Origin: Candidatus Levyibacteriota bacterium
Lineage (GTDB): Bacteria; Patescibacteriota; Microgenomatia; Levybacterales; UBA12049
DNA: 64,000 bases
Reading direction: 5' to 3'
NCBI GenBank assembly: GCA_963790825.1
Contig: CAWBPM010000002.1
Span: 295,159 to 359,158, forward strand
Below, one piece after another: positions 352 through 46,375 of this stretch (its first letter is position 1; each line of letters opens with the position of its first letter). The translations under genes and the position numbers were made by a program. Below the pieces are notes generated by a model. It searched no databases, was not told the DNA's origin, and saw only the letters and a list, made by a program, of their open reading frames with translations.

Positions 352-660
352 TATATCTTATAAAAAACTACTTAACAAGACTTGATTAGCTATATATTTT
401 TTAAAGCTCTGCCTATGTTAGTAACTTAAATAAAAAATTAGTTGATATTAGGTAGAGTTTAATACCTAAATTTCGAGTATCTCGGATCGATGCCCACATT
501 TTGAGGCTAATTTTTAAGTGTACCCCTGGGTTACGCAATATCGAACACTTTTGGATTCATTCATTGAAACGTATAAACAACTTCATCGATATGTTCAAAT
601 CGTATCATATGTATAATTGTATAATTTCCTTCTTCCACCTGGGTATAGTATAATAACACT

Positions 661-1620
661 ATGGAAAATGTTACAAATTCAGGAGAACAAGTAGAAACTA
701 TAAAAAGCAAAGCTAGACATTTAGTTAAAGGCAGTTTAAGCAATAAAACTCTTGATTTAGCCGCTGTTCCCGAAATTATTGACGAAAATGGTCCATTTGA
801 TCCCCATAAAGAAATAACTAGTTCTGATTGGAATGCAATGCTTCATGGCTTACAAGAGTTTAAAAGTCGACAAAGTTCTTATTACCCCGAGCAGGCTGCA
901 TATATGGCTACTATTTTCCCAGAGAGTAAATCAATATTAGGATTTGACAAACATATGTGGGAAGCAACAAAAAAAAATACGGTAGAATATACTCAGGATA
1001 CCTTTACTGCCCTAGAATATGCACATTTTGCTGAACTATTAATGAGAATATTTCCGGAGCGAAGAGACGAATTATTGATTGATCAAATGTATCCACAATT
1101 ACAACATGCGTTAGACCATCTTACAAACCCAAACGAGCGAAGAATTCGAGCTCCATTACCATTAGCAACTTCTATGTTGAGACTGTTTCCTGACCGAAGA
1201 GAAGAAATATTAAATGGTAAAAAACCGCAATTATTAAAAGGGATAGGTAGTCACATAGCTGAGGAGGAAACAATGAATATAGCTAAATTTCGTCATCCAG
1301 ATATGGGAATTCATGCAAATGGAGATAATTTATCTGATGAGTTAGTAAGTGCAATGTATATATTCCCCGATCAGTTTGCTTCTTTGGATCTAAATAGTTT
1401 TTTATGGCGAGATATGAGATCTTCTTTACAAAATACACGAGATTTGCAGGCAATGCATTCTGGTTTGCTTTTATCTGACGAGTGGAAAAGATTTACTCAT
1501 CACGCTGCCAATATGACAGAACTTGCTAGAGGAAAAAGTGAGCTGGCATTGGGAATAAATCAAGAACCTCTTAATCCTACTCAAAAAATGCTTCCTGAAA
1601 AAACAAAGGACAAAATTTGA
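661..1620 (+). CDS. Hypothetical protein with internal IFPE(R/S) and LFPDRREE repeat motifs
   Basis: 319-aa ORF. Repeated motifs MATIFPESK, RIFPERRDELL, RLFPDRREEIL and YIFPDQFASL at regular spacing suggest an alpha-helical repeat protein. No recognisable catalytic motif. Confidence 0.5.
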   Translation: MENVTNSGEQVETIKSKARHLVKGSLSNKTLDLAAVPEIIDENGPFDPHKEITSSDWNAMLHGLQEFKSRQSSYYPEQAAYMATIFPESKSILGFDKHMWEATKKNTVEYTQDTFTALEYAHFAELLMRIFPERRDELLIDQMYPQLQHALDHLTNPNERRIRAPLPLATSMLRLFPDRREEILNGKKPQLLKGIGSHIAEEETMNIAKFRHPDMGIHANGDNLSDELVSAMYIFPDQFASLDLNSFLWRDMRSSLQNTRDLQAMHSGLLLSDEWKRFTHHAANMTELARGKSELALGINQEPLNPTQKMLPEKTKDKI

Positions 1621-1697
1621 CAAGAACCCTGAGGGGAGTCGAACTTTTTTAGCCTCAAATAATATCTTACAGTTGAAGATTATATAAATTTAGCCTC

Positions 1698-1790
1698 GTG
1701 TACCCCTGTTGTCCCACAGTTGGAACTCCACTCCTTCTGGAGAGCCTATTTCGGCTTACCTTAAAACTTCAGAGGTTTGGTTTTATTTAC
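1698..1790. repeat. ~93-bp direct repeat, copy 1, flanking the AbiE module
   Basis: Shares the cores tgtcccacagttggaac, cttaaaactt and tttggtttt(a/g)tttac with 3280-3370. About 70% identity across ~93 bp, same orientation. Confidence 0.6.
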
Positions 1791-1904
1791 TGTAACGGTA
1801 AGGTAATACCGCCGGAGGAGGCAATTATATGAATATCTTCTGTAGGGGACATTCTAAATCTATTATTGATAATATGCCTGTGTCTTCTTTATTATCGGAA
1901 ATAT

Positions 1905-2594
1905 CTATACTCTGCTTTTAAGATCAAACAACAGATCGCGGACTAATGTAGCTTTTATATGATCCTTTTGTTGGTTATTTAGTAACTCCCCAAGTCCTTC
2001 TAAAATTGTATTGGGATTTACTGTATTTTCTATAATATCAATAAGATCGGCAAAATATTCACTTGTATTTTTCCCAGTTCTCATCCTAACGATTTTCTCG
2101 TTAATTGGAAAATCCTTGACGAACATAAAATGCGCGTCATATAAATCTCTGTTTTGTAACTTTTTCCTATCGGTTATGGCGCATAGTTTATGAGCAAACA
2201 TACATTCCGGAGACAAAGTTGGAATAGTAATACCATAAAAATTTTTATTAATATATGTGTCAGGGTAATCACGCTTACTCATTTCTATTTTTACTCTCTG
2301 TTCCCCTTTTTCATAACTTCCTAACCAAAACCAAGTAAAATGTTTATTCACCTGGTCATCAATGATCAAATACTTCTTTATAATATTTGATACTGCTTCT
2401 TCAGGTAATGTTTCTGAAATGACATTAAAATCAAGATCAACGGAAAAACGATCTAATTCATAAAACATGTAGAGACACGTACCGCCTTTAAAAGCAAGTC
2501 TCCCTTGTAATTCAGGAGTCGTATATATATCTCGTAAAATATTTTTTAATATTTGTTCGTATTTCTTCCGATCTAACATATTATTTCTGTGCAT
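1905..2594 (-). CDS. abiEii: AbiEii/AbiGii-family nucleotidyltransferase toxin (type IV TA / abortive infection)
   Basis: 229 aa. The motif AFKGGTCLYMFYELDRFSVDLDFNV is characteristic of the DUF1814/AbiEii nucleotidyltransferase fold. Overlaps the upstream partner by 14 nt. Confidence 0.7.
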   Translation of the reverse strand: MHRNNMLDRKKYEQILKNILRDIYTTPELQGRLAFKGGTCLYMFYELDRFSVDLDFNVISETLPEEAVSNIIKKYLIIDDQVNKHFTWFWLGSYEKGEQRVKIEMSKRDYPDTYINKNFYGITIPTLSPECMFAHKLCAITDRKKLQNRDLYDAHFMFVKDFPINEKIVRMRTGKNTSEYFADLIDIIENTVNPNTILEGLGELLNNQQKDHIKATLVRDLLFDLKSRV

Positions 2595-3279: not shown

Positions 3280-3370
3280 GTACGCCTGCTGTCCCACAGT
3301 TGGAACCCCTAGCCTCCTTGACAGTCTAATTCATCTTAGCTTAAAACTTTAGGAATTTGGTTTTGTTTAC
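3280..3370. repeat. ~93-bp direct repeat, copy 2
   Basis: See the repeat at 1698-1790. Confidence 0.6.
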
Positions 3371-3383: not shown

Positions 3384-3992
3384 TTACAAGTTACCTGTTA
3401 AAAACGTCCTGGGATTTACCGGTATTCCATAGGCGTTGATCTGAAAATGTAAATGCGGACCTGTGGCGTTGCCTGTCTCTCCTTCATAGCCGATAATGGT
3501 ATTTGTGTCAACAGTTGTTCCAACCTTTGTTGTAACTGCCTCCATATGGCCGTACAAGCTCGTTACATGACTTCCGTTGTCAATAACGACATAATTCCCA
3601 TATCCCAGGCTATCTTCTCCCGCAAACGTCACAGTACCTTTAGCAAACGGGTGTATCGGATCTCCTTGAAGGCCTTGTGGGTTGGCAATATCAATACCGG
3701 TGTGGAGTATCTGGTATGGAGGGTCGGGTTGTCCAAATTCAAGCGTCACGATACCCGTTGCGGGCCACGCCATTGACTCAGTAAAATCTGAGGTTGTCCC
3801 ATCTAAATTATGGATCTCAACCGTGTTAGTCGTGAGGTTGAGTGTGACGAGTTTGTCAGAAACGACTTGGAATCCAAAATTTGTTAATACGACTATACCG
3901 ATAATGGGAAGGAGAAGAATAAAAATAAAAACACCGGCAACAATTTTAAATTCAAAGCGATTGGAAAAAAGAGCGAATGCAACATATGGCAT
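3384..3992 (-). CDS. M23 family metallopeptidase with N-terminal TM anchor (T4SS-associated cell-wall hydrolase candidate)
   Basis: GNYVVIDNGSHVTSLYGHM...GETGNATGPHLHFQI is the LytM/M23 signature. A TM helix lies near the N-terminus. Sits immediately downstream of VirB4. Confidence 0.75.
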   Translation of the reverse strand: MPYVAFALFSNRFEFKIVAGVFIFILLLPIIGIVVLTNFGFQVVSDKLVTLNLTTNTVEIHNLDGTTSDFTESMAWPATGIVTLEFGQPDPPYQILHTGIDIANPQGLQGDPIHPFAKGTVTFAGEDSLGYGNYVVIDNGSHVTSLYGHMEAVTTKVGTTVDTNTIIGYEGETGNATGPHLHFQINAYGIPVNPRTFLTGNL

Positions 3993-3998
3993 GGTGTT

Positions 3999-5864
3999 TT
4001 ATATGTATATCTCCTTCGGATCGGTAGTTAAAAGCGGATGTTCTTTCTCCGATGCTACGACTTTGACGGCTACGTGATTCTGATCGGCAATGATTAACGC
4101 TTCGCCCCGCTCACAGGTTAGGAGAAATTGTGATTCGTATTCACTCAAATGAAATTCCTGTGTGACCTGTTTAATTGTTGTAGTGTCCTGGCGCATGAGG
4201 ATACGAAGGGAAGACTGACTGGCAATGGCTCTCCCATAATCTTGTTTGAGGAAATCCTGTGCCTGTTGGGAAATAATGGTGACTCCCAGGTAATATTTCC
4301 GTGCTCGTCGGACTAATCCGGCAATAAATCTGGCTGATTCAACGTGTTCCAAAAGCATCCAACCTTCATCTATCACGAGCATACGTTTTTGTGGATGAGA
4401 TTTCACCTGTGACTCAACAAAATTAGCAATGACCACCATCATAATTTGCCTGAGAGATTCATGAAGATCTTTTATATTGAAAACGATAAGACGATTCTCA
4501 AGTTGTATATTTGTCTGTTCATCAAAAACTGTCGATAGTGATCCTTTGACAAACCGTTCCAATCTATTGCAAATATCTTTTTGCTTCATTGTTTTAAGAG
4601 TTTTATATAAGTCTTTGACTAATGGGAATTCCTGGTGTTTTGCATTCATTTTTTTCTTTCCATTCATTGTGAAGCCAAATTCTTTGTAGGTCAGAAGTAT
4701 TGCCTTATCCATTACCGCCCGCTCTTCGGGAGAGAGTCCTTCAACCATAAGGGAAATAATTTCGGTAAGATTCTGAATATGTTCAGATAAAACATTTTCA
4801 CCATTTTGTGTAATAGAAAAATCAAAAGGATTTATTTTCTCCTTACTGGTAGCGGATAGTTTAATATACGTTCCCCTTACAGATTTTGCCAGTTGTTTGT
4901 ATTCCCGCTCAGGATCAATAACAATCACCTTTGTCCCCTGCATGAGCTGTCTGAGGATTTCAACTTTTGTGGTGTAACTTTTACCGGATCCGGATTGAGC
5001 AAAGATAATGGCATTGGCATTATTGAGTGAAAACCTGTCGACAATAACCAGCGAGTTATTTGATTTGTTAATGCCATAGAGTATTCCTGCCTCCTGCACA
5101 AGTTCTGAAGAGACAAAAGGAAAGGTTAGTGCGCCGGAGGAGCTGTCTAGATTTCGCCTCTGAGAGAGCAGGTTTTCTCCCCTCGGGAGTACCGATTGTA
5201 ACCCTTCAATCTGCTGGTAGATTGCGGTTTTTATATAAAACAACCTGGTTGCCATAACCGTTTCTAAAATCTTGGTGATTTTATTAAGTTCCGATACAGA
5301 GTCGGCAGTAATAGTCATGTAAATGGAAAACTGAAACAGCTTTTCTTTTCCCCGTTGAATATTGTTTTTAAGCAGAATTGCCGAATCCAGGGGATCGGTA
5401 ATTTCAGAACCAACTAACCGTCCGTTTTTAATCATCGCCCGTTTTGTTGCTTCAAGCTCAGTTATTTTTCTGTTCAGTTTTGGCAGAGCAAGGAGTGGAT
5501 CAACTTTTTCAATATGATAGGAGATGTCGATGTTGTAGTTAAAGTTGATAAGCATACTAAGCCATCCCGTACCGGCAACATAGGGAAACCCGCTGATAAA
5601 CAGTGTACGGACAAACTTTTCTCCCATTGACAAGTAACTGCTATTTTCCATCAGTCCCGAGTACGAAATTAAATCAATCTGGTCCTGTTCGCCGAAATTA
5701 AACTGAAATGATTTTTTCAATAATTCTTTTTTCTTGTTTTTGTATTGCAACTTTTTTTGCAAGCGTTTCATTGTCCTTTTTAAATGAATTCGCTTTGCGT
5801 TTTGCAGCGGTTGTAATGAAATATCGGTTAGATTAAACATATGATGTTTTAAGCAGCATATCAA
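3999..5864 (-). CDS. virB4: VirB4/TrbE/CagE-family T4SS ATPase, C-terminal part of a split gene
   Basis: Walker A FAQSGSGKSYTTK and a Walker B-like MLVIDEGWMLL. The conserved N-domain stretch LFISGFPYVAGTGWLSMLINF is present. Overlaps the upstream ORF by 32 nt in another frame. Confidence 0.8.
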   Translation of the reverse strand: MICCLKHHMFNLTDISLQPLQNAKRIHLKRTMKRLQKKLQYKNKKKELLKKSFQFNFGEQDQIDLISYSGLMENSSYLSMGEKFVRTLFISGFPYVAGTGWLSMLINFNYNIDISYHIEKVDPLLALPKLNRKITELEATKRAMIKNGRLVGSEITDPLDSAILLKNNIQRGKEKLFQFSIYMTITADSVSELNKITKILETVMATRLFYIKTAIYQQIEGLQSVLPRGENLLSQRRNLDSSSGALTFPFVSSELVQEAGILYGINKSNNSLVIVDRFSLNNANAIIFAQSGSGKSYTTKVEILRQLMQGTKVIVIDPEREYKQLAKSVRGTYIKLSATSKEKINPFDFSITQNGENVLSEHIQNLTEIISLMVEGLSPEERAVMDKAILLTYKEFGFTMNGKKKMNAKHQEFPLVKDLYKTLKTMKQKDICNRLERFVKGSLSTVFDEQTNIQLENRLIVFNIKDLHESLRQIMMVVIANFVESQVKSHPQKRMLVIDEGWMLLEHVESARFIAGLVRRARKYYLGVTIISQQAQDFLKQDYGRAIASQSSLRILMRQDTTTIKQVTQEFHLSEYESQFLLTCERGEALIIADQNHVAVKVVASEKEHPLLTTDPKEIYI

Positions 5865-6450
5865 TTGTTTGTCCTTTTAACGCCTGTGTTTTTATTTGGT
5901 CGGGATTGTAAAAAGAATAAAACAAATCAAGAAGTTCCAGGCTTGTTAGCTGTCTTGCTTTCATACCGAGTTTCTCGATACCCTTGCTGACAATATCCCG
6001 TTCTAAATATAAATGCTCCTTAATTGTTGTAAAATCATTTTTTCCCGTGTTGTTAAAGGGAACAATAACGTAAAACCGGCGGGAAAGAATCTTGTTGCCG
6101 CGGACCATTTGTTTAATAAACGTACAATAAGTATCAATTTGCTCTCTGTATATTGCTTCTTTTTCCTCTGTTCCTTTGATTTGTATTTGCTGGGTGTAGG
6201 AATCAATATCCATTTCCCTGACCCTAATAAGGATTTGCAGAGAGGAAGGCAGAGAATTTAAAAAGTTCTGGAAGCTATCAATTATAACATCCTGTTCTTC
6301 CTCGGATTTTAATTCGAAGTTAATCGAAGAAGTTTCCAGAACCAGACGGTACTGGTTATTCGGTAATATCAGTATATTATCTTTTACTTCTTTAATCCGG
6401 ATTTGCCGGCGGGAGCCGACTTTCTTATTTGATTTGTTCAATGCCAACAT
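5833..6450 (-). CDS. Probable N-terminal segment of the VirB4-like ATPase (frameshift-separated) or a separate T4SS accessory protein
   Basis: 205-aa ORF ending inside the start of the VirB4 ORF (overlap 5833-5864, different frame). The combined length of ~815 aa matches full-length VirB4. Confidence 0.4.
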   Translation of the reverse strand: MLALNKSNKKVGSRRQIRIKEVKDNILILPNNQYRLVLETSSINFELKSEEEQDVIIDSFQNFLNSLPSSLQILIRVREMDIDSYTQQIQIKGTEEKEAIYREQIDTYCTFIKQMVRGNKILSRRFYVIVPFNNTGKNDFTTIKEHLYLERDIVSKGIEKLGMKARQLTSLELLDLFYSFYNPDQIKTQALKGQTIDMLLKTSYV

Positions 6451-6940
6451 TTAGCCCTCCTTTTTTGTTTGTTTTTATTGAGAATATATACTTAGGGCTG
6501 AGAATGAGCTGCTCCAAGCGGATAATATCAGAAAATACGATTTTTTTAAGGGAGATTTTTTCAACCTTTTTGTCTTTTGCCCTTTTAAGTAAGCGGAATT
6601 GCCTTTTCTCAGTTACCGGCAGATATATGTCCCGCCCGTACGCATCATTTTTGTTATACACATAATATTTCGGCCTGAGGTTATACCTAAGTAAAATACA
6701 AATCCAGCTTAGAACAACTTTCCCTTTTATTCTGAGAGCAAGGGTAAGACTGATAATCGCGGCAATGAGCGCGGCGGCAATTTTTACAATGCTTAGATGC
6801 AGCTTTGGCGGAAGGATGATAAATTCAACTGTTGACAGGAAAACCGGAATCATAAGCAAGATAATCTGTGTTAAATTGAGGCTTCCCGCAATCCTGTCCT
6901 CAACGGTTGTAATCTGCGCCGGAATAATTCTGGTTCTCAC
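6425..6940 (-). CDS. Small membrane protein, VirB3/TcpE-like T4SS component candidate
   Basis: 171 aa with two or three hydrophobic helices (IILLMIPVFLSTVEFIIL, IAAALIAAIISLTLAL). Position between VirB6-like and VirB4 matches VirB3 synteny. Confidence 0.3.
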   Translation of the reverse strand: MRTRIIPAQITTVEDRIAGSLNLTQIILLMIPVFLSTVEFIILPPKLHLSIVKIAAALIAAIISLTLALRIKGKVVLSWICILLRYNLRPKYYVYNKNDAYGRDIYLPVTEKRQFRLLKRAKDKKVEKISLKKIVFSDIIRLEQLILSPKYIFSIKTNKKGGLNVGIEQIK

Positions 6941-8235
6941 GCGTTAACGTACCTCCTTCGCCGTACTGCGTCATCGTCATCGGTTTGTTGTTGTTGTTGT
7001 TGCGACCCGGCATTTTCCCCCTTACGGCTTGTCATAGTATTAAGCATTTGTCCGCCCATATGGATTAAAGCACCCATTCGGGAGGTATAGAACATCATTT
7101 GGAATAACCAGGTGGGAATTTTAAGAAGGGTTAGAAATAGTCCTATGGCAATGACAATTGAGAGAAGTGAGCTGTCCGGATTATCGGGGATAGCCAGAAA
7201 GGAGGAAGCAAGTTGTATGACAACCACGTGCACAAAAATAATAAAGACGGTAACAAAGTATCCCTTAACCGCTGCCTCGGCAAAATCCGAGAACTTGGGG
7301 ACTGCCCACATGAGAAAGATAAAAGGAGAGAGGACGCCGGCCAGGACAACGAGAATAAGCCTGACAATATACATAAAAAGGAGGATAATTGCCACGATCA
7401 AAAAGATGATAAAAAAGATTAAAGTAATTATTGGTGTATGCCCGGTCAAAACACTCACAGGACTTATGGCATTGACCACCCATGCGTGGCTCAAACCCCC
7501 TGTTGTGTTAATCACCTCACTAACCAGTGCGTTGCAGGTGGTAATAACGTAGTCGCAAAGAAACAGGGAGACATTCGCGCCTAAAAATGCCAAACCGATA
7601 CGGGGAAGTAGGTGTTTAAGCTCTATCTCCTCAAAGCCAAAGGTTGAAGCCGACATAAAATGCAACCCTAAAAGAGCAACAACGAGAACAAATAACGAAT
7701 CAACAATTCCCAGGCTTACTGTCCAGAAGTGAAATACAACTGAGTTGCTAAGTAAACTTGGAGTTGTGGTTAGATAACCTATAATCGCATTCACAATTGG
7801 CTGTGTTGCGCTTTGCACTATGTTTTGCATCAGTCCTGTAATTGCGCTGATAAGAACCTGTGCAATGGCGCCCGTTGGACTTTGGGCTGCAATGGGAATC
7901 AAACTGGTTGCTAAGGAGGCAGCGGGTGAGACGGGGGCAATAAGGGCATTTTGCAAAAGAGAGACAACAACATTTGCCGAAAGAACAAGAGAAAGACCTA
8001 TGAGGGCATTTCTGATAGTTTTCCTGGCCTGCTCCAACGCTTCCGGATGGCCGGTTGAGGTGATGTATTGGTATCCTCCTTTAATTAAGAAGAGAATCGC
8101 TGATGCCGATGCTAAAAGAGTAAGAATCTGAAGGGTGTCACTTGTGTAGTTGGTAATGTCCGCTCCTGCCGCAAATACAGGCGGAACGACAAAAAGAAAG
8201 AGAGTAGCTCCATAAAGTAAGATCTTCTGCTTCAT
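6937..8235 (-). CDS. VirB6/TrbL-like polytopic membrane protein with an N-terminal pilin-like domain and a C-terminal polyQ/polyD tract
   Basis: 432 aa with more than six TM segments. Residues 1-110 (signal peptide plus two hydrophobic segments, GGYQYITSTGHPEALEQARKTIRNALIGLSLVL) are paralogous to the 113-aa pilin-like ORF upstream. C-terminus reads SQQQQQQTDDDD, encoded by a (ttg)6 repeat at 6985-7002. Confidence 0.45.
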   Translation of the reverse strand: MKQKILLYGATLFLFVVPPVFAAGADITNYTSDTLQILTLLASASAILFLIKGGYQYITSTGHPEALEQARKTIRNALIGLSLVLSANVVVSLLQNALIAPVSPAASLATSLIPIAAQSPTGAIAQVLISAITGLMQNIVQSATQPIVNAIIGYLTTTPSLLSNSVVFHFWTVSLGIVDSLFVLVVALLGLHFMSASTFGFEEIELKHLLPRIGLAFLGANVSLFLCDYVITTCNALVSEVINTTGGLSHAWVVNAISPVSVLTGHTPIITLIFFIIFLIVAIILLFMYIVRLILVVLAGVLSPFIFLMWAVPKFSDFAEAAVKGYFVTVFIIFVHVVVIQLASSFLAIPDNPDSSLLSIVIAIGLFLTLLKIPTWLFQMMFYTSRMGALIHMGGQMLNTMTSRKGENAGSQQQQQQTDDDDAVRRRRYVNA

Positions 8236-8247
8236 AACTTGTAATTC

Positions 8248-8589
8248 CTATTGACTTGCCTGCGCCGTACCGAATGCTGTCGTCGCAAGATCGGTTATAA
8301 TCGTTGATAATACAAACGCTCCCAAAACTATTGCCAGTCCGATTGCCGAGTAAAATATAGTTTTTTTGGACCGGTCTAACGATTCCGGATTACCGGATGA
8401 AGTGATATACCCCACTCCTCCCCAGACAAAAAAACCGGCTGCTACTAAACCTGCCAGTGTGACAAGAACCGAGATGATGCTTTGGATAAAGGTTTGAATC
8501 TTCGTAACGTCTGCTGAGGCGGCAAACGCCGGCGTCGCAGTTATAAGAGACGTAAGTACTAACGATGACAGAAAGATTAGTTTTCTCAT
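8248..8589 (-). CDS. VirB2/TrbC-like pilin candidate
   Basis: 113 aa with a signal peptide ending AFA-AS and two hydrophobic segments, the typical topology of conjugative pilins. Sits adjacent to the VirB6-like gene. Confidence 0.45.
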   Translation of the reverse strand: MRKLIFLSSLVLTSLITATPAFAASADVTKIQTFIQSIISVLVTLAGLVAAGFFVWGGVGYITSSGNPESLDRSKKTIFYSAIGLAIVLGAFVLSTIITDLATTAFGTAQASQ

Positions 8590-13210: not shown

Positions 13211-13612
13211 TTAATTAATTTCTTGAAATAGACAAGTTTCTCCGTTGGCAAGACCAAGTATCCCGACATGAATAAAAAATTGTTTCCAATTATTTCCTAA
13301 GGCAATTCCTAAGTTTTCTTCTCCCTTGAATTTATCACAGCGGTAAGTTTTTATTTCGCTATTATACGAAATAACAAGCTTATAATCGTGATTATATTTA
13401 TTTAAATAACTTAAAGTTTGTATATCTCCGTCTCTTTTGTAAGTTGTTAAATCTGGTTCATACACTACTGACCCCATTTCTCTTTTTCCTTCCTGGTTTA
13501 TTCTGTACATTGCAACGAAAACATTGTAGGAAAATACGTTTAGTTCCGGTCTGTCTTCTATAGCCAAGGGTCTTGGTATAAAAGAATATAGGGAACCATT
13601 TTTTATATCCAT
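13211..13612 (-). CDS. Hypothetical protein, tandem paralog A (immunity-protein-like family)
   Basis: 133 aa. About 40% identical to the adjacent 13651-14073 product. Shared motifs ERPELNVF, YDPDL(T/S)TYK, DYKL(V/I)IS(Y/F)N and WK(Q/R)FF(I/L)HVG(I/L)LG(L/F)A(N/K)GET. Confidence 0.5.
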   Translation of the reverse strand: MDIKNGSLYSFIPRPLAIEDRPELNVFSYNVFVAMYRINQEGKREMGSVVYEPDLTTYKRDGDIQTLSYLNKYNHDYKLVISYNSEIKTYRCDKFKGEENLGIALGNNWKQFFIHVGILGLANGETCLFQEIN

Positions 13613-13650: not shown

Positions 13651-14073
13651 TTAGTTTGTTTGTTTAATTTCATCAAACAAATAGGTTTCTCCTTTTGCAA
13701 AACCCAGTAACCCGACATGTAGAAAAAATCGTTTCCAATCATTCTCCCCGTCAGCACAGCCTACAATTTTATCCTTATTGTATTTAGCGCAACTGTAAGT
13801 ATTCTTAACGGCATTAAAAGAAATAATAAGTTTATAGTCCTGATTGAAAATATTTTTATAACTTAAACTTTTAATATCACCGTTATCTTTATAAGTAGAT
13901 AAGTCGGGATCGTAAAAGACTGAACACACAACCATTTTTCCTTCCTCATTTAATCCGTGAGATGAAACAAATACATTAAAAGGGAAAACATTAAGCTCAG
14001 GTCTTTCTTTTATCTCTAAACGGGTTGGCAAAAAAACAAACAAAGAATCTTTATCGATACTTATCATACCCAC
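13651..14073 (-). CDS. Hypothetical protein, tandem paralog B
   Basis: See 13211-13612. AT-rich pair. Confidence 0.5.
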   Translation of the reverse strand: MGMISIDKDSLFVFLPTRLEIKERPELNVFPFNVFVSSHGLNEEGKMVVCSVFYDPDLSTYKDNGDIKSLSYKNIFNQDYKLIISFNAVKNTYSCAKYNKDKIVGCADGENDWKRFFLHVGLLGFAKGETYLFDEIKQTN

Positions 14074-14445
14074 CTCCTTTCCAACAAAAAACCTCTCCTG
14101 AAAGAGAGGTATAATACAAAAAAATTGTTTACCAAATTTTCTTGGTCAAATCCGTCCCTTTCCAAGGGCTGGGTTTGGCACCGCTTAATAATTACCGGTT
14201 GCCGGGTGGGTCACTGAGCCAGAACTCTCGCCACCGCTCTTGATTAATTGTTAAGCCTATTAAATAACTTTTTAAAGGCTTTGTCAATAATTCAATACTA
14301 AGGAGTTGTTTAGGCTCTTCTAGGCAAGAGTCAAGCATTCTTTATTCTCAGTCAGTTAGTTGAACTCGCGGAATCGGTAAATGTCCAAAACAGCGAGACT
14401 AATTTTAATGCTTTTTGTAAAGCTTTCCCTTCTCCTTGTCCCAAA

Positions 14446-20212: not shown

Positions 20213-20524
20213 GTGAATAAACAAATGATGCTACTTACTAAACAATTGACACAGAGACTACCAAAGCTATATGAGCAGGAAAACAATACTGATCCGATGG
20301 TTATCTGTAAGTTCTTTTTACCGATGACCAAATGGACTTGGTACGCCATAGAATTTGACGGAAAAGATACGTTTTTTGGCTACGTTGTCGGAGATTATCC
20401 GGAGCTTGGTTACTTTACTCTGTCAGAGCTAAAAGATATTGAGGGCCCATACGGGCTAAAGGTTGAGCGGGATATGTATTTCGACCCTCAACCGCTCTCA
20501 AAGATACAAGCGGGGGAAAGATAA
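20213..20524 (+). CDS. DUF2958-family protein (commonly carried on conjugative elements)
   Basis: 103 aa. KFFLPMTKWTWYAIEFDGKDTFFGYVVGDYPELGYFTLSEL resembles the DUF2958 family seen on plasmids and ICEs (from memory, not a search). Confidence 0.5.
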   Translation: MNKQMMLLTKQLTQRLPKLYEQENNTDPMVICKFFLPMTKWTWYAIEFDGKDTFFGYVVGDYPELGYFTLSELKDIEGPYGLKVERDMYFDPQPLSKIQAGER

Positions 20525-20581
20525 AGAAAAGTCTCTGCCGCCGGAACTGCCACCGGCGGCAGATCCTGCCCGCCTACCCAG

Positions 20582-21382
20582 TTATTCTACTTTTTCCCAA
20601 ACATCAGGGGTTTTAGCATTAAGTATTCTCTCATTCCAGGATAAATATAGAGGGAATGGTTCATCAAATTGTTTTTCAAATAGTGCTTTTGCAAAGTAAT
20701 ACAGGTGTTTCTTTAACTTTTCTCTTGGGCAAATAAATAAAACTGCGGGGAACGCTTGCCCGTTTGCGTTGTCCTCCCAATTACCTCCCTCAACATATTG
20801 CATGTATGTTAATATCCGTGAACGAAGTATTCCGGCAGAAGCATAGTCTCTGAATAATTCAAGGAAATATCTTCTGGTTTTCTCTTTTGTTTTTACTGAT
20901 ATATAAGCACTTGGCAGGGGAGTAGGAAAATACTCATATTGCAGCAATTGGCTTTCAGTAAAAAAACGGATCTCTTCATCTTTTTTCTTCTTTGCTAAAA
21001 AGAAAAGATAAACATCTGCTAAGTCTAGACAGTAAGAAATAAAACTTTCTGTCCGACTCTTTTCTTTGTACACTTTACCCAGTGCTTCAACGTCGCAGTC
21101 CTTTTCCTGTTTTAGGATTTGTATTCCTTTAGTACCCAGAAAATAGACAGCCGGCTTTGTCCGGTTTTTAAATGAATCAGGCAGATAATATCTGTGAATA
21201 TACTTATTATCTTTTAAGTCTTTAAGCCAGAGTTGTATTCTTTTGGGGTTTTTATGATTGAATAATATTTGCAGTTGGTTAGTATTTAGGAATCTGAATT
21301 TATATATATATTTTAATATTTGTTTTTCTTTGCCGGTTATTTTAACTTCTGTTTTGTTCTCTGTTTTTATTATTTTTTTCAT
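20582..21382 (-). CDS. Replication-relaxation (Replic_Relax, PF13814-like) family wHTH protein
   Basis: N-terminal EKQILKYIYKFRFLNTNQLQILF matches the wHTH start typical of Replic_Relax proteins. Lies immediately downstream of the VirD4-like gene, as in Gram-positive conjugative elements. Confidence 0.45.
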   Translation of the reverse strand: MKKIIKTENKTEVKITGKEKQILKYIYKFRFLNTNQLQILFNHKNPKRIQLWLKDLKDNKYIHRYYLPDSFKNRTKPAVYFLGTKGIQILKQEKDCDVEALGKVYKEKSRTESFISYCLDLADVYLFFLAKKKKDEEIRFFTESQLLQYEYFPTPLPSAYISVKTKEKTRRYFLELFRDYASAGILRSRILTYMQYVEGGNWEDNANGQAFPAVLFICPREKLKKHLYYFAKALFEKQFDEPFPLYLSWNERILNAKTPDVWEKVE

Positions 21383-21490
21383 GCTGGGTTTATATATTTA
21401 TGCCTCTTATATTTATATAAGATATAATAGGAAGAACTTTTTTGTAATTTAGCTTCATTTTAAGCATATTTTTGTAGGTACTCGCACCTA

Positions 21491-24196
21491 CTATTTTATC
21501 TGCTTCGTATCATCGGGAAGTGACCCTGTTATTTTATTTTTTGTCTCCGTAGTTTCTTTCTGTCTTGCTGCTTGCTGCTCTTTATTGACCGGTTTTTTCA
21601 GGTAGACAATTGCCCAGTTATTTCTCGAAGATGCAATGAGTTTCTCCATCTTTTTACTATCTCTTTTGACGGGCATATAGATTGTCTCACCGGAAAAAGG
21701 TTCTTCGGATTCTATGGCTGAAATTTTAATATAGAATCTGTAACGGGGAAGACTCATTATTTCGCCCTTTACTAAGTAGGGCGCAAACTGGTTAAGCATT
21801 AAATCTTCATCAATATAATTGCCGGACCGGAATGAGATAACTGTGGTAACGTTTGCCAGGATAATATTGGTAACATCCCTGTCTTTTTGCTGGGAGGTTG
21901 ACTGCTCGGCAATAATTAAAGGCATCCTGTACTTTCTGCCCTCTGTTATCATTTTTGTAAATGACTGGGTTGCAAAATTTTGGAATTCGTCAACATATAC
22001 ATAAAATGTTTTCCTCTTGCTCTCCGGTATATATGCTCTTTTTAATGCAGCTTGCTGGAGTTTGGTCATGATTGTTGTTCCCATGAGCCGTGAGGAGTCT
22101 TCACCTAATTTTTGTGAGAAATTACAAATGAGAATTTTACCGCCGTTTATAATTTCATCAAAATTAATAGTGGATTTCTCCTGTTCTAAAATTCTTTTAG
22201 CAGTAGGAGAGCGGAGAAACCTTCCAACCTTGGCTGTAATCCCCTGAGTCATTTTTACTATCTGATAATCTCCGGCTTTGCCGAATTCATATTTCCAGAA
22301 ATCTACTAAATCCTCATCCGTCAGTTTTGACACAACCTGTTTGCGAAAGGTAGGATTAGTCATGATTTTATTGATGGTAAATAATGTTGCGCCCGGTACA
22401 GTAAACGCTGTGTAAATAGTATTTCTTAAAATATATTCAATTCTGTGAGCATTAGTACTCTCATCTTTTGAAAATACTTTTCTGAAAAGCGACACTACAC
22501 CTTCTGCAACTACCTCTTTTTCCAGCTCCGCTTCGTCTTCATCGAGTCCGGGTGTCAACTCCATGACGTTTATTCCGATCGGATACTTTAAGTCTATCGG
22601 GTTAATATATATGAGATCGTCTTTCCGGCTTGTCGGAATAGAAGCCACTAAATCTTCTGCTACATCTCCATGCGGATCAATAAATGCTAAACCGCGGCCT
22701 TCTTCAATATCATGTTTTGCCATGGAAAACATTAAGGTAGTTTTACCTGAACCGGTTCGGCCTAAAATATACATATGCGTTTGCCGCTCTTCTTCGGTTA
22801 ATCCGATCGGCGTTGTTACTCCCGCATAATTATTTTCTCCAAAAACAGTATCCAGCTCCGTACCGTTTTTTAGTGTTATTGGGGCGGGTAATTCTTTTGA
22901 ATGTGCTTTTACAATGTTTTCCGTTTGCGTAACATACTTAAAAGGAAAATGATATAGGTCTGCTATCTCAGACGCGGAATATAATGAGGAACTTGCATTG
23001 TTAATTAAAGATAACATTCGTTTTCGAAACACAAATAGTTGTACCCGATCCGAGACATATGGAATTCCATATGTTTTGAAGAAGGACTGATATTTAGGAA
23101 CGTTATACATAGCAAGGGAGGAATGAAAACCTTTAACCCTCTGTGCAACTTCAGACTTTTCCTTCATAACAACTAGTAACCTGATTGATCCTTCAAACAA
23201 CTCCTGATCAATTTTTGTTTTGATTGACTGGATCACTTCCTGCTCAAAGCTACTTAGTATCCTAGCCGGCCGAAGGTGCTGCATTTGTATAACTTGCTGA
23301 TACTGGTATTGCCCGGAAATATGTATCGACTGTGTGTTTGAATGCATCAGCTCAGTTATTGCCCACTGCAGATTATTTCCGATTGCCAATATCATTTTAA
23401 GTAATACTTTTAGAAGGAATAACAATATTTTTACAACTAAAGGTGCTCGGGGTTTACTTAAATACCTTAGTATATCTTCATTGTTGAGGATCATCTGAGA
23501 AAGAATATCCGCTTCTTTGATTTTGGTTCCGGAAACTACTACTTGCAAAGAGATTAATTCTCCGGGTTTTAACTGCGTCATCATACCGGTGATATACGCA
23601 ACCGGATCATGTTCCTGCAGAGTGGATTGTTTTTGCAGAGGAAAAGCAAAATGTTTTCTTAATTGAAACCCGGCAACTTTTATATGCAATTTATTATTAG
23701 TTTTATCAACAGTGGGAATATATTCACTAGTTGTTTTCACCAGGACATGGGGAAGGTAGGAGAGAATCTCCCGTTTTATGTTCTCTTTTTCTTCCGGTGT
23801 TGTCCTGACAATGAAACGGATTCCCAGCTCTCTGCTTGAAACAATTTCGAAAGAAAGAATCGTTTTCCTGCCCAGTAATTTATCTGTAAACGAATCCCGC
23901 TTTGATAAGCCGTGTATCATTGAAAAAAATTCCTGCGTGGTATATGCAGACTTTTCGCTTATTGTCGGAGGGGTAATTTCAAGCAGAACCGATTCTTCAT
24001 TCATTAGTTTTCTGAAATTGAAATACCAGCGGGCAATTAGTATTACCAGCACACATACGACAAGAAAAAGAATAAAAGGAAAGGATGAGAAAGGAGAGTG
24101 ATGAGCAAAGTTAATAAACTCATCTTTTAAATGAGGAAGAGAGGCAGTTAACCGGCTAAGTATATATCCAGCTTCCCAATGATGCCAGTCATTCAT
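21491..24196 (-). CDS. virD4: Type IV coupling protein (VirD4/TraG/TraD family) with a long N-terminal membrane-anchored extension
   Basis: Walker A ILGRTGSGKTTLMF, Walker B FYVYVDEFQNFAT and an N-terminal TM helix. 901 aa. Confidence 0.8.
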   Translation of the reverse strand: MNDWHHWEAGYILSRLTASLPHLKDEFINFAHHSPFSSFPFILFLVVCVLVILIARWYFNFRKLMNEESVLLEITPPTISEKSAYTTQEFFSMIHGLSKRDSFTDKLLGRKTILSFEIVSSRELGIRFIVRTTPEEKENIKREILSYLPHVLVKTTSEYIPTVDKTNNKLHIKVAGFQLRKHFAFPLQKQSTLQEHDPVAYITGMMTQLKPGELISLQVVVSGTKIKEADILSQMILNNEDILRYLSKPRAPLVVKILLFLLKVLLKMILAIGNNLQWAITELMHSNTQSIHISGQYQYQQVIQMQHLRPARILSSFEQEVIQSIKTKIDQELFEGSIRLLVVMKEKSEVAQRVKGFHSSLAMYNVPKYQSFFKTYGIPYVSDRVQLFVFRKRMLSLINNASSSLYSASEIADLYHFPFKYVTQTENIVKAHSKELPAPITLKNGTELDTVFGENNYAGVTTPIGLTEEERQTHMYILGRTGSGKTTLMFSMAKHDIEEGRGLAFIDPHGDVAEDLVASIPTSRKDDLIYINPIDLKYPIGINVMELTPGLDEDEAELEKEVVAEGVVSLFRKVFSKDESTNAHRIEYILRNTIYTAFTVPGATLFTINKIMTNPTFRKQVVSKLTDEDLVDFWKYEFGKAGDYQIVKMTQGITAKVGRFLRSPTAKRILEQEKSTINFDEIINGGKILICNFSQKLGEDSSRLMGTTIMTKLQQAALKRAYIPESKRKTFYVYVDEFQNFATQSFTKMITEGRKYRMPLIIAEQSTSQQKDRDVTNIILANVTTVISFRSGNYIDEDLMLNQFAPYLVKGEIMSLPRYRFYIKISAIESEEPFSGETIYMPVKRDSKKMEKLIASSRNNWAIVYLKKPVNKEQQAARQKETTETKNKITGSLPDDTKQIK

Positions 24197-25177: not shown

Positions 25178-25761
25178 TTAATAAAAAGCTTTTGCATTTT
25201 CTTAATTTCTCCCCACCTCTGCCTCAGCTCTCTAATATATCAAAATCCTAGTTAGCCAAAATAATCTACTTTCATTGGCTATAACGATACATTAGAGGCA
25301 ACTGAGGTTAAACTTTATACGTGATGTTTATGCCAAATAACGAAAATTTGTCTGTTTTTAGGGAATAGACTCTTAGCTCTCTGGTTCGAATCCCTTTTGG
25401 TTGTCAAAAGAGTTTAAGCTAACGAACTCGACCTAGGATTTATATCTTTGAAATTAAGATTGGTTTGTTCTATCAATCTATTCTCGCATTTGCAAACACG
25501 AGCGACCCGTTTGGTACCCCTGATGCACTTTCTTTTGAGCTCTTTCTGCCTTGTATTAACAAAATTAGGGTCGTTTATCAAGAATCCGAATCTATCGATA
25601 GTGATCAATTATTACCCCAGGATACTTCTTTCTTTAGGGGATATTATGTGAAGAATATGAATTAAAGAATTATTTATTTTAAGCACAGGCTGGCTGTTTC
25701 AGATTTCCCGAACTTTTGAACCTATTTAAAAGCACTCAGGGAGCGTGCTTCACCTGAATAA

Positions 25762-26320: not shown

Positions 26321-26476
26321 CTGTACATATGATACATGTACAATAGTCGCATGTCAATAGCTAAAATTATCGCTTTAGCCTCTGCTGATCATAGTAAAGT
26401 ATTCGAGTCGCCTCAGGGTTCAAACATTCTTAAGTCTAACAAAGGTGAGATTATTTTTGAAGATTAATTAGCAATT

Positions 26477-26557
26477 TAGCCCGTTCTATCAATCTATTCG
26501 TATGTTTGATACTGTAGGCGTCCCCTTTGGTACCCCCTATGGGACGATGTCCGAACC
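26477..26557. repeat. tRNA-Leu-flank-derived element, copy B
   Basis: Shares tagcccgtt(c/a)tatcaatctattcg...cgtcccctttggtacc with 47652-47716 (the native tRNA-Leu 3-prime flank) and, more loosely, with 25465-25522. It adds the motif tggtaccccctatgggacgatgtccgaacc, which recurs at 44768-44797 and 45157-45186. Confidence 0.55.
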
Positions 26558-26643
26558 TATCTAACTATATCAATTGATCCTAACGAAAAATCCGAACTGC
26601 TGTTAATCCTTAACCTTTTTAAAATTAAGAAAGGAGAACAGCA

Positions 26644-27102
26644 GTGATAATGTCGTATTTTAACAAATTATTAGCCGTAAAAGAAGCGATAGATGTCTCA
26701 AAACTATATAACGAAAAGACGTTTTATAAGGCTTTTATTAAAGACTTAGAGAGAGTAAGAAATGAGGTAATTATTGAATCTCCATTTATTACCATTGAAC
26801 GGGTAAAATATTTTATACCGATATTTACTAAGCTAATAAAAAAAGGTGTACAAATTCATGTGTATACTCGTATAGCTGAAGAACAATCTGACGAAATGCA
26901 GTATCAAACTGAAAAGGGAATAGATCTACTAGAAGAGATTGGCGTTTTTGTTGTACCAGTGAATTGTTTTCTGCATAGGAAGTTAGCTATTATTGATAAC
27001 AATATAGTATGGGAGGGAAGTTTGAATATCTTATCGCAGAGAAACAGTCAAGAATTCATGCAAAGACTCAATAATCAATCAGAAGTAATCAAAATTGTAT
27101 AG
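26644..27102 (+). CDS. Phospholipase D-like (HKD) domain nuclease, Nuc-like
   Basis: The single HxK(x)4D motif HRKLAIIDNNIVWEGSLNI indicates a homodimeric single-HKD nuclease. Paralog of 46376-46825 (about 45% identity). Confidence 0.7.
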   Translation: MIMSYFNKLLAVKEAIDVSKLYNEKTFYKAFIKDLERVRNEVIIESPFITIERVKYFIPIFTKLIKKGVQIHVYTRIAEEQSDEMQYQTEKGIDLLEEIGVFVVPVNCFLHRKLAIIDNNIVWEGSLNILSQRNSQEFMQRLNNQSEVIKIV

Positions 27103-29572: not shown

Positions 29573-29837
29573 TTTTAGTATTACTTATCTCTCTTTAGAA
29601 GTCAAACTATGCCTATAACGATAAATTGTCGGCATATGTTAAACAGGATTATGTATAAGTTTATACCAAATAACGGAAAGTCTGCGTTTCATGGTCACAA
29701 TATATTTAATACCAAAATTCCCCCAAAAGGGACTCGAACCTAAAATCGAGGGAAAATAGAGAAAACTGAGCCTAAAACTTACTTAGGTTCGAGCGTCCCA
29801 TACGGGTTGTTAAATTTCGAGGCTGTTTTTAAGGTGT

Positions 29838-29910
29838 ACCCCTGGAGGGATTCGAACCCCCGACCTTGTCGTTAGAACCGACCAGCTCTATCCTCTGAGC
29901 TACAGGGGCG
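29838..29910 (-). tRNA. tRNA-Arg (anticodon TCT)
   Basis: Manual cloverleaf fold: acceptor GCCCCTG/CAGGGGT (G1-U72), D-stem GCTC/GAGC, anticodon loop GTTCTAA, T-arm GGGGG-TTCGAAT-CCCTC. CCA is not encoded. Confidence 0.8.
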
Positions 29911-43930: not shown

Positions 43931-44027
43931 TATTTACATTATTGCACAAAATTAGGTGAATACAAGTATAAAAGACAGGATTTATATATTGGATAACCTT
44001 TTCTTTTATAAAGCTAACTGAGTAAAG

Positions 44028-44227: not shown

Positions 44228-44674
44228 TCACCGGGTCCTCGGAAGAGTCCGCTTATAATAATCGTGTATCGCTATTTTATAAACCTTTCTACGTTGCTCT
44301 TCCGTCAGCGAGGTAAAATTTCGGGTATACCTTTCGGGTACCGGTAAATATTCAAATTCACCTTTAATAAGATCAGCTTCTTGAGTAGCAGCATCATTAA
44401 TTTCCACTCTGAAAAGAGCACCAGGTTTTCGCTGTGTTTCCTGAATATATTCACTACTAATAATAAAAGTATTACCAAGGGTTTCATTAGATAAAAAGGG
44501 GAAAGATACGATTGTCATGCCGTCTGACTGATTTTCTTTGGACCCAAAAGATATTATAGTAGCTACAGTAGGCCACCTACGCTCAGGCCGCTGGGGTAAC
44601 GGTTCTACGCGAGAAACCCCACCAGCAGAATTTCTAAAACCAGAGCTCTCAAGTTCTTTTGCTAATATAGCCAT
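44228..44674 (-). CDS. Hypothetical protein
   Basis: 148-aa ORF with good coding appearance. Confidence 0.4.
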   Translation of the reverse strand: MAILAKELESSGFRNSAGGVSRVEPLPQRPERRWPTVATIISFGSKENQSDGMTIVSFPFLSNETLGNTFIISSEYIQETQRKPGALFRVEINDAATQEADLIKGEFEYLPVPERYTRNFTSLTEEQRRKVYKIAIHDYYKRTLPRTR

Positions 44675-44879
44675 TAGTATTAATATTATTAAAGTTATAT
44701 AAGTATAAAATTAAAGGAGGGTATGAAAATTGTAATATTTTGAGGAGTAATTATTTACCAAGACATCTGGTACCCCCTATGGGACGATATTCGAACCCAT
44801 ATTCAATAACTTGGTCCTACAGAAAAAGAGTTTATGTTGAAAAATATTAAATGAGGGAAACTATGAAGAAATGTGTATA

Positions 44880-45080
44880 TTATTTTGCTTTATTTGCTCT
44901 TCCTCTCCAAAGAAAACTACCAAACAACATCATAACTCCTACAACTATTCCTGCTACAAGTACTGGCATACCAGCTGCTCCAGATGATAGTGAACATAAA
45001 CCCAATATTATTGCAACTACACCTGCGCCTAATGTAAGACCCGCCATATATATTGCTTTTTCTCGTGGTGTATTTCCCAT
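44880..45080 (-). CDS. Small two-helix membrane protein
   Basis: The minus-strand 66-aa product is strongly hydrophobic (GLTLGAGVVAIILGLCSL, VLVAGIVVGVMMLFGSFLW). It is preferred over the overlapping plus-strand ORF. Confidence 0.3.
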   Translation of the reverse strand: MGNTPREKAIYMAGLTLGAGVVAIILGLCSLSSGAAGMPVLVAGIVVGVMMLFGSFLWRGRANKAK

Positions 45081-45259
45081 GTTTTGATTATGGTATACGA
45101 TATTTTAAATGTCAATAGAAGAGTTTTGAAAACCCAAATATATTATAGGTCTTGGTACCCCATATGGAACGATGTCCGAACCTACGTAGCCTCACTTGAG
45201 TCTAAAGAAAAGACCGAATTGTTGCTAATTCTACAAAAAAATAAAACGGGATAAATCTA

Positions 45260-46198
45260 TTAGCTTTTATGTTGTTTAACAAAATTATCAAGATCTGCTT
45301 TTTCAATACGAATAAATTTTCCGCCTAATTTTACAGCTTTTAGTTTATTACTTCTAACATACCTTCTAACGCTTTCCGGATCAATCTGAAGTATTCTTGC
45401 CACCTCAATGGTTGTATAAAAAATTTGATTTTGTTGCTTTAACGAAATTGATTCCTGCGGCTTGAATGCTTCTAGGTAAATATCCAAAGATCTATTTATC
45501 GCATCATAGATTAATTCATAGTATGCGTTCATCTGTTCTTTTGTTTGCCCTATTTCCAGTGCAGTAAGATATCTATTTCTTTCTTCTTTTTTAATAATTG
45601 CAGGAGGAAAACCTGTCTGGATTAAGATAAAATTCATTAAAAGTCTGGCTGTCCGACCATTACCATCAGTAAACGGATGAATAGTTACCAGTTTAAAATG
45701 AGCATCACTAGCTAATTGTACTGGATTATCATTTGCAGTTCGTAACCATTGCACAAATTCGTTCATTAAGTCTGGTACCTTTAATGGGTTAGGAAGAATA
45801 GTTGTTGAGCCGGCTATTCTAACCGGAGTACTTCGTAATCTTCCAGCATTTGTATCATCAATTTTTTCTAATATAATTCTATGAATCTGCAGAATATCTT
45901 GAAATGTCAGTTCTTCTCTCTTTTTTTGCCGGGCTAGTCCTTGAATATAGGAAAAAGCCTTTGCATGATTAATTGCCTCTAAATGTTCATTTAGACTTTT
46001 ACCTTCCACTGTAATCCCTTTTTCCACAACAAGAGCAGTCTCTTGCCGAGATAGCGTATTCCCTTCAATTGCATTTGAAGTATAAGTTAATTCAACCCTA
46101 TACCACTCTTCAAGGTTATTTTCTATTGTCTTTGAAAAGGGTTTATAGCTATCCAAAAGGGATTTTTTTAGAAGAAGATCTTTTAGAATTTCATTCAT
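45260..46198 (-). CDS. fic: Fic-family protein with a C-terminal excisionase/MerR-like HTH
   Basis: Canonical HPFTDGNGRTARLL. The C-terminal IEVARILQIDPESVRRYVRSNKLKAVKLGGKFIRIEKADLDNFV resembles an Xis-type HTH. Confidence 0.8.
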   Translation of the reverse strand: MNEILKDLLLKKSLLDSYKPFSKTIENNLEEWYRVELTYTSNAIEGNTLSRQETALVVEKGITVEGKSLNEHLEAINHAKAFSYIQGLARQKKREELTFQDILQIHRIILEKIDDTNAGRLRSTPVRIAGSTTILPNPLKVPDLMNEFVQWLRTANDNPVQLASDAHFKLVTIHPFTDGNGRTARLLMNFILIQTGFPPAIIKKEERNRYLTALEIGQTKEQMNAYYELIYDAINRSLDIYLEAFKPQESISLKQQNQIFYTTIEVARILQIDPESVRRYVRSNKLKAVKLGGKFIRIEKADLDNFVKQHKS

Positions 46199-46375
46199 AC
46201 ATTGCTATTTTATACTACTTAAGACGACTTGTCAAGGATAAAAGTAGCATTGTATAGTAATGAATAGCAATAAGCCTATAATGGTGTACCCCTGGTGCAA
46301 ATTGCTTCGAACCCCTGCTGGCTCATTTTAATAATTTGATGGAGGCTTATCAAGCTGCCGGAGAGGAGACTAGGC

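Follow-up and report, generated by a model that had tools for sequence, protein, structure and literature searches.

Probable attachment-site scars of tRNA-targeting large serine recombinase elements, accreted in tandem, in a Patescibacteria genome

Integration into transfer RNA (tRNA) genes is regarded as a habit of tyrosine integrases. In the islands and integrative conjugative elements (ICEs) concerned (Islander-type, ICESt3, P4-like), an intact tRNA gene forms one end, a displaced copy of the gene's 3' end marks the opposite one, the element restores the tRNA, and tandem accretion leaves several partial repeats. Tyrosine recombinases also include intP of Myxococcus phage Mx8 and the archaeal SSV1-type integrases, which carry attP in their own gene; integration alters or splits the reading frame, so that integrated and excised forms differ at the C-terminus. 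According to a 2020 survey, use of tRNA genes by serine integrases was not known; it listed only 14 candidates of 297 and called for proof (PMC7192596). We describe here a 64,000-nt stretch of contig CAWBPM010000002.1 of a Candidatus Levyibacteriota bacterium (hereafter the window, meaning the whole stretch), a member of the Patescibacteria (candidate phyla radiation), in which a 13-nt word, GGTGTACCCCTGG, recurs at and away from a tRNA 3' end. This word is likely to be the attachment-site core of a Patescibacteria clade of large serine recombinases (LSRs), carried by conjugative elements with a type IV secretion system (T4SS) that integrate into tRNA 3' ends, and its copies are probably the scars of such elements, accreted in tandem. 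The locus is like the tyrosine-integrase islands in all the features named above. It is unlike them in that the recombinase is of the serine type, the exchanged tRNA segment comprises the last few bases only, and the non-tRNA arm is an attP arm with a box shifted by 5 bp, not a tRNA copy. Unlike the Mx8 and SSV1-type cases, the C-terminal tail alone appears to be swapped, for residues encoded antisense to the tRNA. A literature search found no description of an LSR/tRNA arrangement of this kind.

The exact word occurs at 29833-29845, the 3' end of tRNA-Arg(TCT) on the minus strand, and at 46283-46295. Near-matches lie at 517-529 (12 of 13 positions, with an exact 12-mer at 518-529) and 1697-1709 (11 of 13, with an exact 11-mer at 1698-1708), and all four copies are on the same strand. 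The word is the antisense of the tRNA-Arg acceptor 3' strand plus the discriminator and 3-4 downstream bases. The initial annotation of the window had pointed out these four sites; its tRNA copy was off by one (29834-29846), its other three stand exactly as given, and its tally of three extra sites is incomplete. Repeat finding and pattern scans gave further copies of the same type at 3280-3306, 24638-24664, 25514-25540, 26530-26556, 44770-44796 and 45155-45181, plus the end of tRNA-Leu at 47705. The family thus amounts to at least nine non-tRNA copies together with tRNA-Arg and tRNA-Leu, in two islands and in a single orientation throughout; GGGGTAC itself occurs 10 times on the minus strand of the window and once on the plus strand. 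The copies at 518 and 29833 form a direct repeat spaced by 29.3 kb around the larger island, as had been noted, with a conjugative backbone between them, and their likeness extends to 27 of 32 nt (498-529 against 29814-29845), into the flank downstream of the tRNA. The copies at 1698 and 3280 are parts of 91-nt direct repeats (79% identical) around an AbiEi/AbiEii cassette, and that at 46283 lies in a small second island, which is flanked by tRNA-Pro and tRNA-Leu. No family copy was found in the 9.3 kb upstream of the window that an independent assembly (L001) supplies, and the leftmost copy, E1, is the outermost within at least 9.8 kb. We also noted tRNA-3'-like pieces with tRNA-type spacing at 1626-1645 and 29722-29740 (..CCCTGAGGGGAGTCGAAC.. 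and ..CCCCCAAAAGGGACTCGAACC..), 60-100 nt to the left of scar E2 and tRNA-Arg, which may be older truncated junctions.

The geometry of the copies is fixed. Read on the plus strand, each of the nine non-tRNA copies has GTAC(C/G), 15 variable bases and a box, (T/A)(T/C)(C/G/T)GA(A/G)C. In tRNA-Arg and tRNA-Leu the box is the antisense T-loop, exactly 5 bp closer. The same long spacing was found in attP-like sites of five relatives (L038, L045, L053, L059 and L098); in these, as in the nine copies, the outer box is shifted by 5 bp relative to the tRNAs. In serine integrases the motif of the zinc-ribbon domain (ZD) lies 5 bp nearer the centre in attB than in attP (PMC3783163). Since the difference seen here fits that rule, we assign the tRNA arms to the attB type (B') and the arms with long spacing to the attP type (P'). 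The TTCGAAC box would then be the ZD motif, and crossover would take place in or adjoining GTAC if the box takes up positions near +13 to +18 of the tRNA arm and +18 to +23 of P'. Such a centre would also agree with a breakpoint in two relatives (L098/L100) and with the G1.U72 and ..GGTAC tRNA ends, both described below. The intervening 15 nt vary freely while a plus-strand frame, xTP-5aa-E, is retained; in full it reads xTP-5aa-E(P/H/L), and the tail of the longer scars aligns with the native tails of the LSRs of L053 and L059. The described LSR attachment sites (Listeria LI/A118, Bxb1, phiC31) are similar in the domain set of the enzyme, in having the box 5 bp nearer the centre in the host site, and in the very short identity between the two sites. 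They differ from the present ones in that here the targets appear to be tRNA genes and not protein-coding genes, attP would lie inside the 3' coding region of the integrase, and the vehicle appears to be a Patescibacteria conjugative element and not a phage. A scan of viral contigs for GTTCGA-N7-14-CAGGGGTACAC returned 35 matches, nearly all of them phage tRNA genes; the sole long-spacing match (L003) lies in GC-rich coding sequence and was set aside as chance.

Pieces of the recombinase gene itself are found at three of the copies. That no integrase is present had been stated before, and this holds in so far as neither the window's open reading frames (ORFs) of 80 aa or more nor the 9.3 kb preceding position 1 gave an integrase domain, and tblastn found no LSR body in the window; 3' coding remnants of LSR genes nevertheless survive. 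A protein profile built from the C-terminal 66 residues of 58 LSRs, compared with all six-frame fragments of the window, matched only 26472-26561 (E 1.9e-5), 47650-47880 (E 0.0023) and 25423-25662 (E 0.0075), which are the left sides of the copy at 26530 (scar D6a), of tRNA-Leu and of the copy at 25514, respectively. A DNA profile (nhmmer) of the last 400 nt of LSR genes gave the same three places, with E-values of 7.9e-11 (26530), 4.3e-12 (tRNA-Leu) and 2.4e-6 (25514), and no other match in the window. The part that survives is the last ~65 nt, with decayed traces further upstream. At 26530 the frame runs to a stop 85 nt before a PLD-like gene, and in scar E4 the stop of the tail frame overlaps the ATG of the PLD-like gene that follows; the order LSR, att site, PLD of relative L038 thus recurs at D6a and E4. 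Two ORFs adjoining the two ends, of 319 aa and 261 aa, were considered as divergent integrases and rejected, as neither has a Pfam or PDB sequence match. As a separate observation, the small gene and the LSR known from relatives are gone exactly between the coupling-protein start and scar X24638 (24197-24664), whose left arm is not LSR-like; we speculate that the recombinase may have deleted its own gene there by recombining with a pseudo-site.

Intact counterparts were found in relatives. The locus L039 (NCBI gives Microgenomates group bacterium Gr01-1014_5 as the source of its protein) has an island backbone collinear with that of the window, in the order tRNA-Gly, a 526-aa LSR, a small gene, coupling protein, Replic_Relax, DUF2958, and pilin through M23 peptidase, and the last 21 codons of its LSR overlap tRNA-Gly antisense; no distal repeat of tRNA-Gly was found within the 21.8 kb examined. 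The LSR of L038 (510 aa) ends in ..STPSGTMFVPI and a stop, the DNA there (GTACCCCATCTGGGACGATGTTCGTACC) is the same long-spacing element, and a PLD gene comes next. Both enzymes have Resolvase, Recombinase and Zn_ribbon_recom domains. When the two were used as queries against metagenomes, 80 loci were obtained, of which 71 were informative in that the contig extends at least 75 nt past the 3' end of the LSR gene. At 58 of these 71 an antisense tRNA 3' end lies inside the LSR reading frame; 16 tRNA species are represented, including Arg(TCT) in L116. Several other LSR contigs end at the tRNA-overlap point, and the LSRs without a tRNA have the long-spacing site instead (the five relatives named above). 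The comparison of L098 with L100 and L109 bears on the point of exchange. The three LSR 3' ends are identical as far as ..CCCATTTGGTAGC (..TTTGGTAGC), which is 7 nt inside tRNA-Glu; from there tRNA-Glu goes on in L100 and L109, and L098 passes abruptly into a long-spacing TTCGCAC site. We read this divergence as a recombination breakpoint 7 nt inside the tRNA; it is sharp, falls after TGGTAGC, and is compatible with exchange at a central dinucleotide with little flanking identity. A conserved gene of 92-117 aa, without a Pfam match, precedes the LSR in 73-75 of 82 loci (e.g. L116, 3738-3950) and is a candidate directionality factor or regulator. Also upstream of the LSR are a divergent coupling-protein gene in 39 of the 82 loci and a Replic_Relax gene in 21. 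Attachment sites away from an LSR were seen as well: long-spacing attP-type sites lie at 21175-21201 (minus strand) in L038 and at 8272-8298 (plus strand) in L077, the latter matching window scar X25514 at 22 of 27 positions, which points to tandem arrays in other genomes too.

The two tRNA genes of the window fit in with these relatives. tRNA-Arg(TCT), called by ARAGORN and Rfam (57.9 bits), is an intact, functional-looking gene at one island boundary, with its right arm in attB geometry, a G1.U72 pair and the end ..GGTAC. The G1.U72 pair and this end are found in all six tRNAs of L038-like LSR elements (tRNA-Arg and tRNA-Leu of the window and four tRNA-Glu, L040-L042 and L048), a pattern which suggests that the element supplies the tRNA from position 72 onward. 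As a general mark of LSR-occupied tRNAs G1.U72 was rejected (7 of 62, against 5 of 41 bystander tRNAs); it is limited to the L038-like subfamily and the two tRNAs of the window.

We propose the following course of events, whose order in the formation of the array is inferred. In intact relatives the relaxase and coupling-protein genes, both on the opposite strand, are followed by the small gene and this by the LSR, the final codons of which overlap the tRNA antisense. The attP of the element would accordingly fall within the 3' coding end of the recombinase itself. During integration the last few bases of the tRNA would come from the element, and the native C-terminal tail of the LSR (xTP-5aa-EP-LL..L..Y) would be transferred to the far end of the element. 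tRNA-Arg and tRNA-Leu, with attB-type right arms, would be occupied targets, that is P/B' junctions, and the nine other copies, with attP-type right arms, would mark distal or internal junctions of elements and small cassettes stacked beside the tRNA. Among these, 26530 and 25514 would be P/P' junctions, as expected inside tandem arrays, and 46283, 24638, 44770, 45155, 1698 and 3280 would be x/P' junctions. E1, with a left arm in common with tRNA-Arg and a P' right arm, could be either a distal junction with a P-like B arm or an internal attP-like junction. The cassettes would carry AbiE, BrnT/CopG, PLD, Fic and the 319-aa gene, which is without assignment. Once the recombinase genes had been deleted to remnants, the array would be fixed unless an LSR acted in trans. 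The coordinates of the features are collected in Table 1.

Table 1. Probable attachment-site scars, tRNA genes read as occupied targets, and associated genes in the window
Feature	Position	Strand	Description
Scar E1	498..546	+	left arm resembles tRNA-Arg left arm; core GTGTACCCCTGG; attP-type right arm GTACC-N15-ATCGAAC; leftmost copy
Scar E2	1698..1790	+	core GTGTACCCCTG; attP-type right arm, TTGGAAC box; left copy of 91-nt repeat
Scar E5	3280..3370	+	decayed core GTACGCCTG; attP-type right arm; right copy of 91-nt repeat
T4SS module	3384..8589	-	M23 peptidase, VirB4, TraC-like, PrgI-like, VirB6/TrbL, VirB2-like pilin; collinear with L038 and L039
Replic_Relax relaxase candidate and type IV coupling protein	20213..24196	-	DUF2958 there on + strand
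Scar X24638	24636..24726	+	core AGTACCCC; attP-type right arm; conserved tail EPLLAWLTKLMDVYQ
Scar X25514	25456..25540	+	~65 nt LSR 3' coding remnant; core GGTACCCCTGA; attP-type right arm
Scar D6a	26395..26561	+	LSR 3' coding remnant (..SPFYQSIRMF..VPFGTPYGTMSEPI, stop); core; attP-type right arm; PLD gene next
PLD-like (PLDc_2) gene	26644..27102	+	downstream of scar D6a; 47% identical to L038 PLD beside LSR
tRNA-Arg(TCT)	29836-29909 (entry 29814..29909)	-	probable occupied target; 22-nt downstream flank common with E1
Scar D6b	44770..44796	+	attP-type site, GTACC-N15-TTCGAAC
Scar D6c	45155..45181	+	attP-type site
Scar E4	46283..46382	+	exact 13-mer core; attP-type right arm; conserved tail frame CTPGANCFEPLLAHFNNLMEAYQ...
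PLD-like gene	46376..46825	+	downstream of scar E4; 55% identical to L038 PLD
tRNA-Leu(TAA)	47703-47788 (entry 47570..47788)	-	+ strand LSR 3' coding remnant enters tRNA 3' end

The genes between the scars are those of an integrative conjugative element of the MPF-FATA type: VirB4, a coupling protein, a relaxase candidate, pilin and VirB6, and a cell-wall hydrolase are all present. Scar E5 directly adjoins the M23/VirB4 end of this backbone, and scar X24638 occupies the place, after the coupling protein, where relatives have the small gene and then the LSR directly following the Replic_Relax/coupling-protein module. The Replic_Relax (PF13814) gene adjoins the coupling-protein gene in the window (20582-21382, minus strand), in L039 (5856-6623) and at the 21 LSR loci already counted. 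Replic_Relax is a candidate relaxase for the T4SS clusters of Patescibacteria, most of which are said in the literature to have no relaxase. The set is like that of the Patescibacteria T4SS surveyed in 2025 (VirB4, VirB6, pilins and M23, MPF-FATA-like), a survey that found no relaxase in most clusters, proposed a co-opted, non-conjugative chromosomal system, and makes no mention of recombinases or tRNAs (PMC12102498). Unlike in that account, the T4SS of the window and of its relatives is linked to a coupling protein, Replic_Relax, an LSR and a tRNA junction. Such linkage, with Replic_Relax as the relaxase candidate and the LSR as the integrase, speaks for these systems being, or having once been, mobile at least in part, and so bears on the question of whether the Patescibacteria T4SS is a conjugation machine or a co-opted system.

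Several points weigh against the interpretation of the copies as LSR attachment sites. The DNA profile detected no LSR likeness in the left arms of E1 and tRNA-Arg, and for this reason the E1/tRNA-Arg pair is not cleanly assignable to attL and attR. E1 and tRNA-Arg both show a left-arm box placed symmetrically at a constant distance, but its position is inconsistent across subfamilies, which makes the choice of a crossover dinucleotide a guess. Arg-type cores occur in the tRNA-Leu island and Leu-flank-type remnants in the tRNA-Arg island, so that additional rearrangements or trans-mobilised cassettes are needed. With no recombinase in the window and the 9.3 kb upstream, no enzyme is directly tied to these sites. 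An empty tRNA-Arg site is not available for comparison, the nearest relatives being about 55% identical in the flanking AI-2E gene. The best identity of that gene to any other sequence is 54-58%, and the single GTDB representative that it matches, a Levyibacteriota metagenome-assembled genome (55% identity), is without a tRNA-Arg at the locus and without synteny to the left flank of the window. VirB4, in contrast, is 75-83% identical to thousands of Patescibacteria proteins where the AI-2E gene reaches only ~55%, a difference that speaks for the interpretation. The conservation of VirB4 could, however, also reflect vertical inheritance of a chromosomal T4SS, as argued in PMC12102498. The element was seen in the integrated form only, in two independent assemblies; the array in the window is a decayed relic and does not of itself prove present-day mobility. 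Both island junctions were confirmed independently in L001 and L120 (Logan assembly of ERR11594402). Breaks in the Logan assembly fall inside the island (~13-20 kb) and in tRNA-Gly, as would be expected if repeats had confused the assembler.

Could the two copies at 518 and 29833 be attL and attR of one element, inserted in tRNA-Arg by a classical tyrosine integrase that has since been lost, with the other copies incidental? The initial annotation, without naming a recombinase type, saw in the pair the configuration expected for attL/attR of an element integrated into the 3' end of tRNA-Arg, and the pair does look the part: the tRNA is intact at one end, a direct repeat of 12 exact nt (27/32 in all) stands at the other, and mobile-element genes lie between. 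We nevertheless regard this as improbable. Neither the window nor the islands of relatives, which carry an LSR at exactly that position, have a tyrosine integrase domain; seven more copies of fixed geometry are found in the tRNA-Arg island and in the second island; the +5 shift of the box is a hallmark of LSRs and not of tyrosine integrases; and the non-tRNA arm of E1 is not a tRNA copy. The LSR remnants also count against it. What is retained from the idea is that these are att relics at a tRNA 3' end, in a composite or tandem array of decayed elements and not in one element with one attL and one attR. Likewise, 518 belongs to a direct repeat as proposed for attL, but with its attP-type right arm and tRNA-Arg-like left arm it may be an internal attP-like junction.

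Still less probable is a cis-regulatory or leader role (promoter, operator or 5' untranslated region) for the motif, common to accessory genes, the 319-aa gene and the PLD paralogues among them. In favour of such a role, copies lie 64-132 nt upstream of the plus-strand genes at 661, 26644 and 46376, and a TATAAT-like hexamer abuts the copy at 46283. (The distances for two of these, put at about 100-140 bp in the first description, measure 132 nt to 661 and 81 nt to 46376.) E2, E5, D6b, D6c and X24638 have no matching downstream plus-strand gene, however, the same sequence forms the 3' end of recombinase genes in relatives, and folding of all copies on either strand revealed no conserved RNA structure. 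The order LSR, attP, PLD seen in L038 already explains the adjacency to genes.

Marginally weaker again is the case for decaying tRNA pseudogenes or tRNA-like RNAs (minihelices) derived from tRNA duplication. A T-loop-like box and an acceptor 3' strand do follow each other in tRNA order; against this, every copy has a spacing that exceeds that of any tRNA by 5 nt, 5' halves are missing, and the intervening 15 nt vary freely under a preserved xTP-5aa-E frame. ARAGORN made no call at the copies and Rfam gave no match to them at E<=10 over the whole window, and neither T-stem pairing nor a cloverleaf, minihelix or common fold was found. That a word of only 11-13 nt recurs by chance, a doubt voiced at the outset, is a negligible prospect given four matches against 0.30 expected from dinucleotide shuffles (0 of 100 shuffles reached four), three matches against 0.00 for the composite of 13-mer and T-loop box, the strand bias and the extended flank similarity.

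The interpretation as LSR attachment sites has wider implications, if it is right. Here a whole LSR clade appears to integrate into tRNA genes systematically, and attP/attB geometry can be read directly from genomic scars. We consider the larger picture evenly balanced between right and wrong: a Patescibacteria LSR clade specialised on tRNA 3' ends (at least 16 tRNA species), with attP in its own gene end and a C-terminal tail swapped for tRNA-antisense residues (which might help set directionality), would move the "chromosomal, co-opted" T4SS clusters as true ICEs and build integrase-less, att-flanked arrays of defence and toxin cassettes that can be mobilised in trans. Arrays of att-flanked, recombinase-less segments beside a tRNA are also features of the cis-mobilisable elements (CIMEs) of streptococcal ICE accretion-mobilisation and of the Prochlorococcus tycheposons (10.1101/2020.12.28.424599). 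The 1.2-kb and 1.6-kb cassettes between E1, E2 and E5 are examples in the window. Unlike those systems, the present one involves another recombinase family and another host phylum, and its cassettes are only candidates for mobility. Compact LSRs with predictable, highly conserved tRNA 3'-end targets could interest users of serine integrases in genome engineering.

The cargo of the larger island (0.5-29.8 kb) includes toxin-antitoxin genes and comprises AbiEi/Eii, Fic/MazE-like, PIN, two BrnT/CopG pairs, a PLD-like gene, an NHL protein and an S-adenosylmethionine (SAM) riboswitch; the second island, from tRNA-Pro to tRNA-Leu, has a Fic-HTH gene, a PLD paralogue and ORFs without assignment. The riboswitch (RF00162, 49.7 bits) lies in the mobile island at 14145-14249 on the minus strand, and neither of the ORFs downstream of it (13651-14073 and 13211-13612) has a Pfam match. 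Between 13125 and 20194 there are intergenic repeat families (D4, D5, D9 and D14; a hairpin plus GCAAGGGT; one 40-nt pair is exact). They are interspersed among small ORFs of no assigned family and toxin-antitoxin genes, and the run resembles a series of paralogous cassettes.

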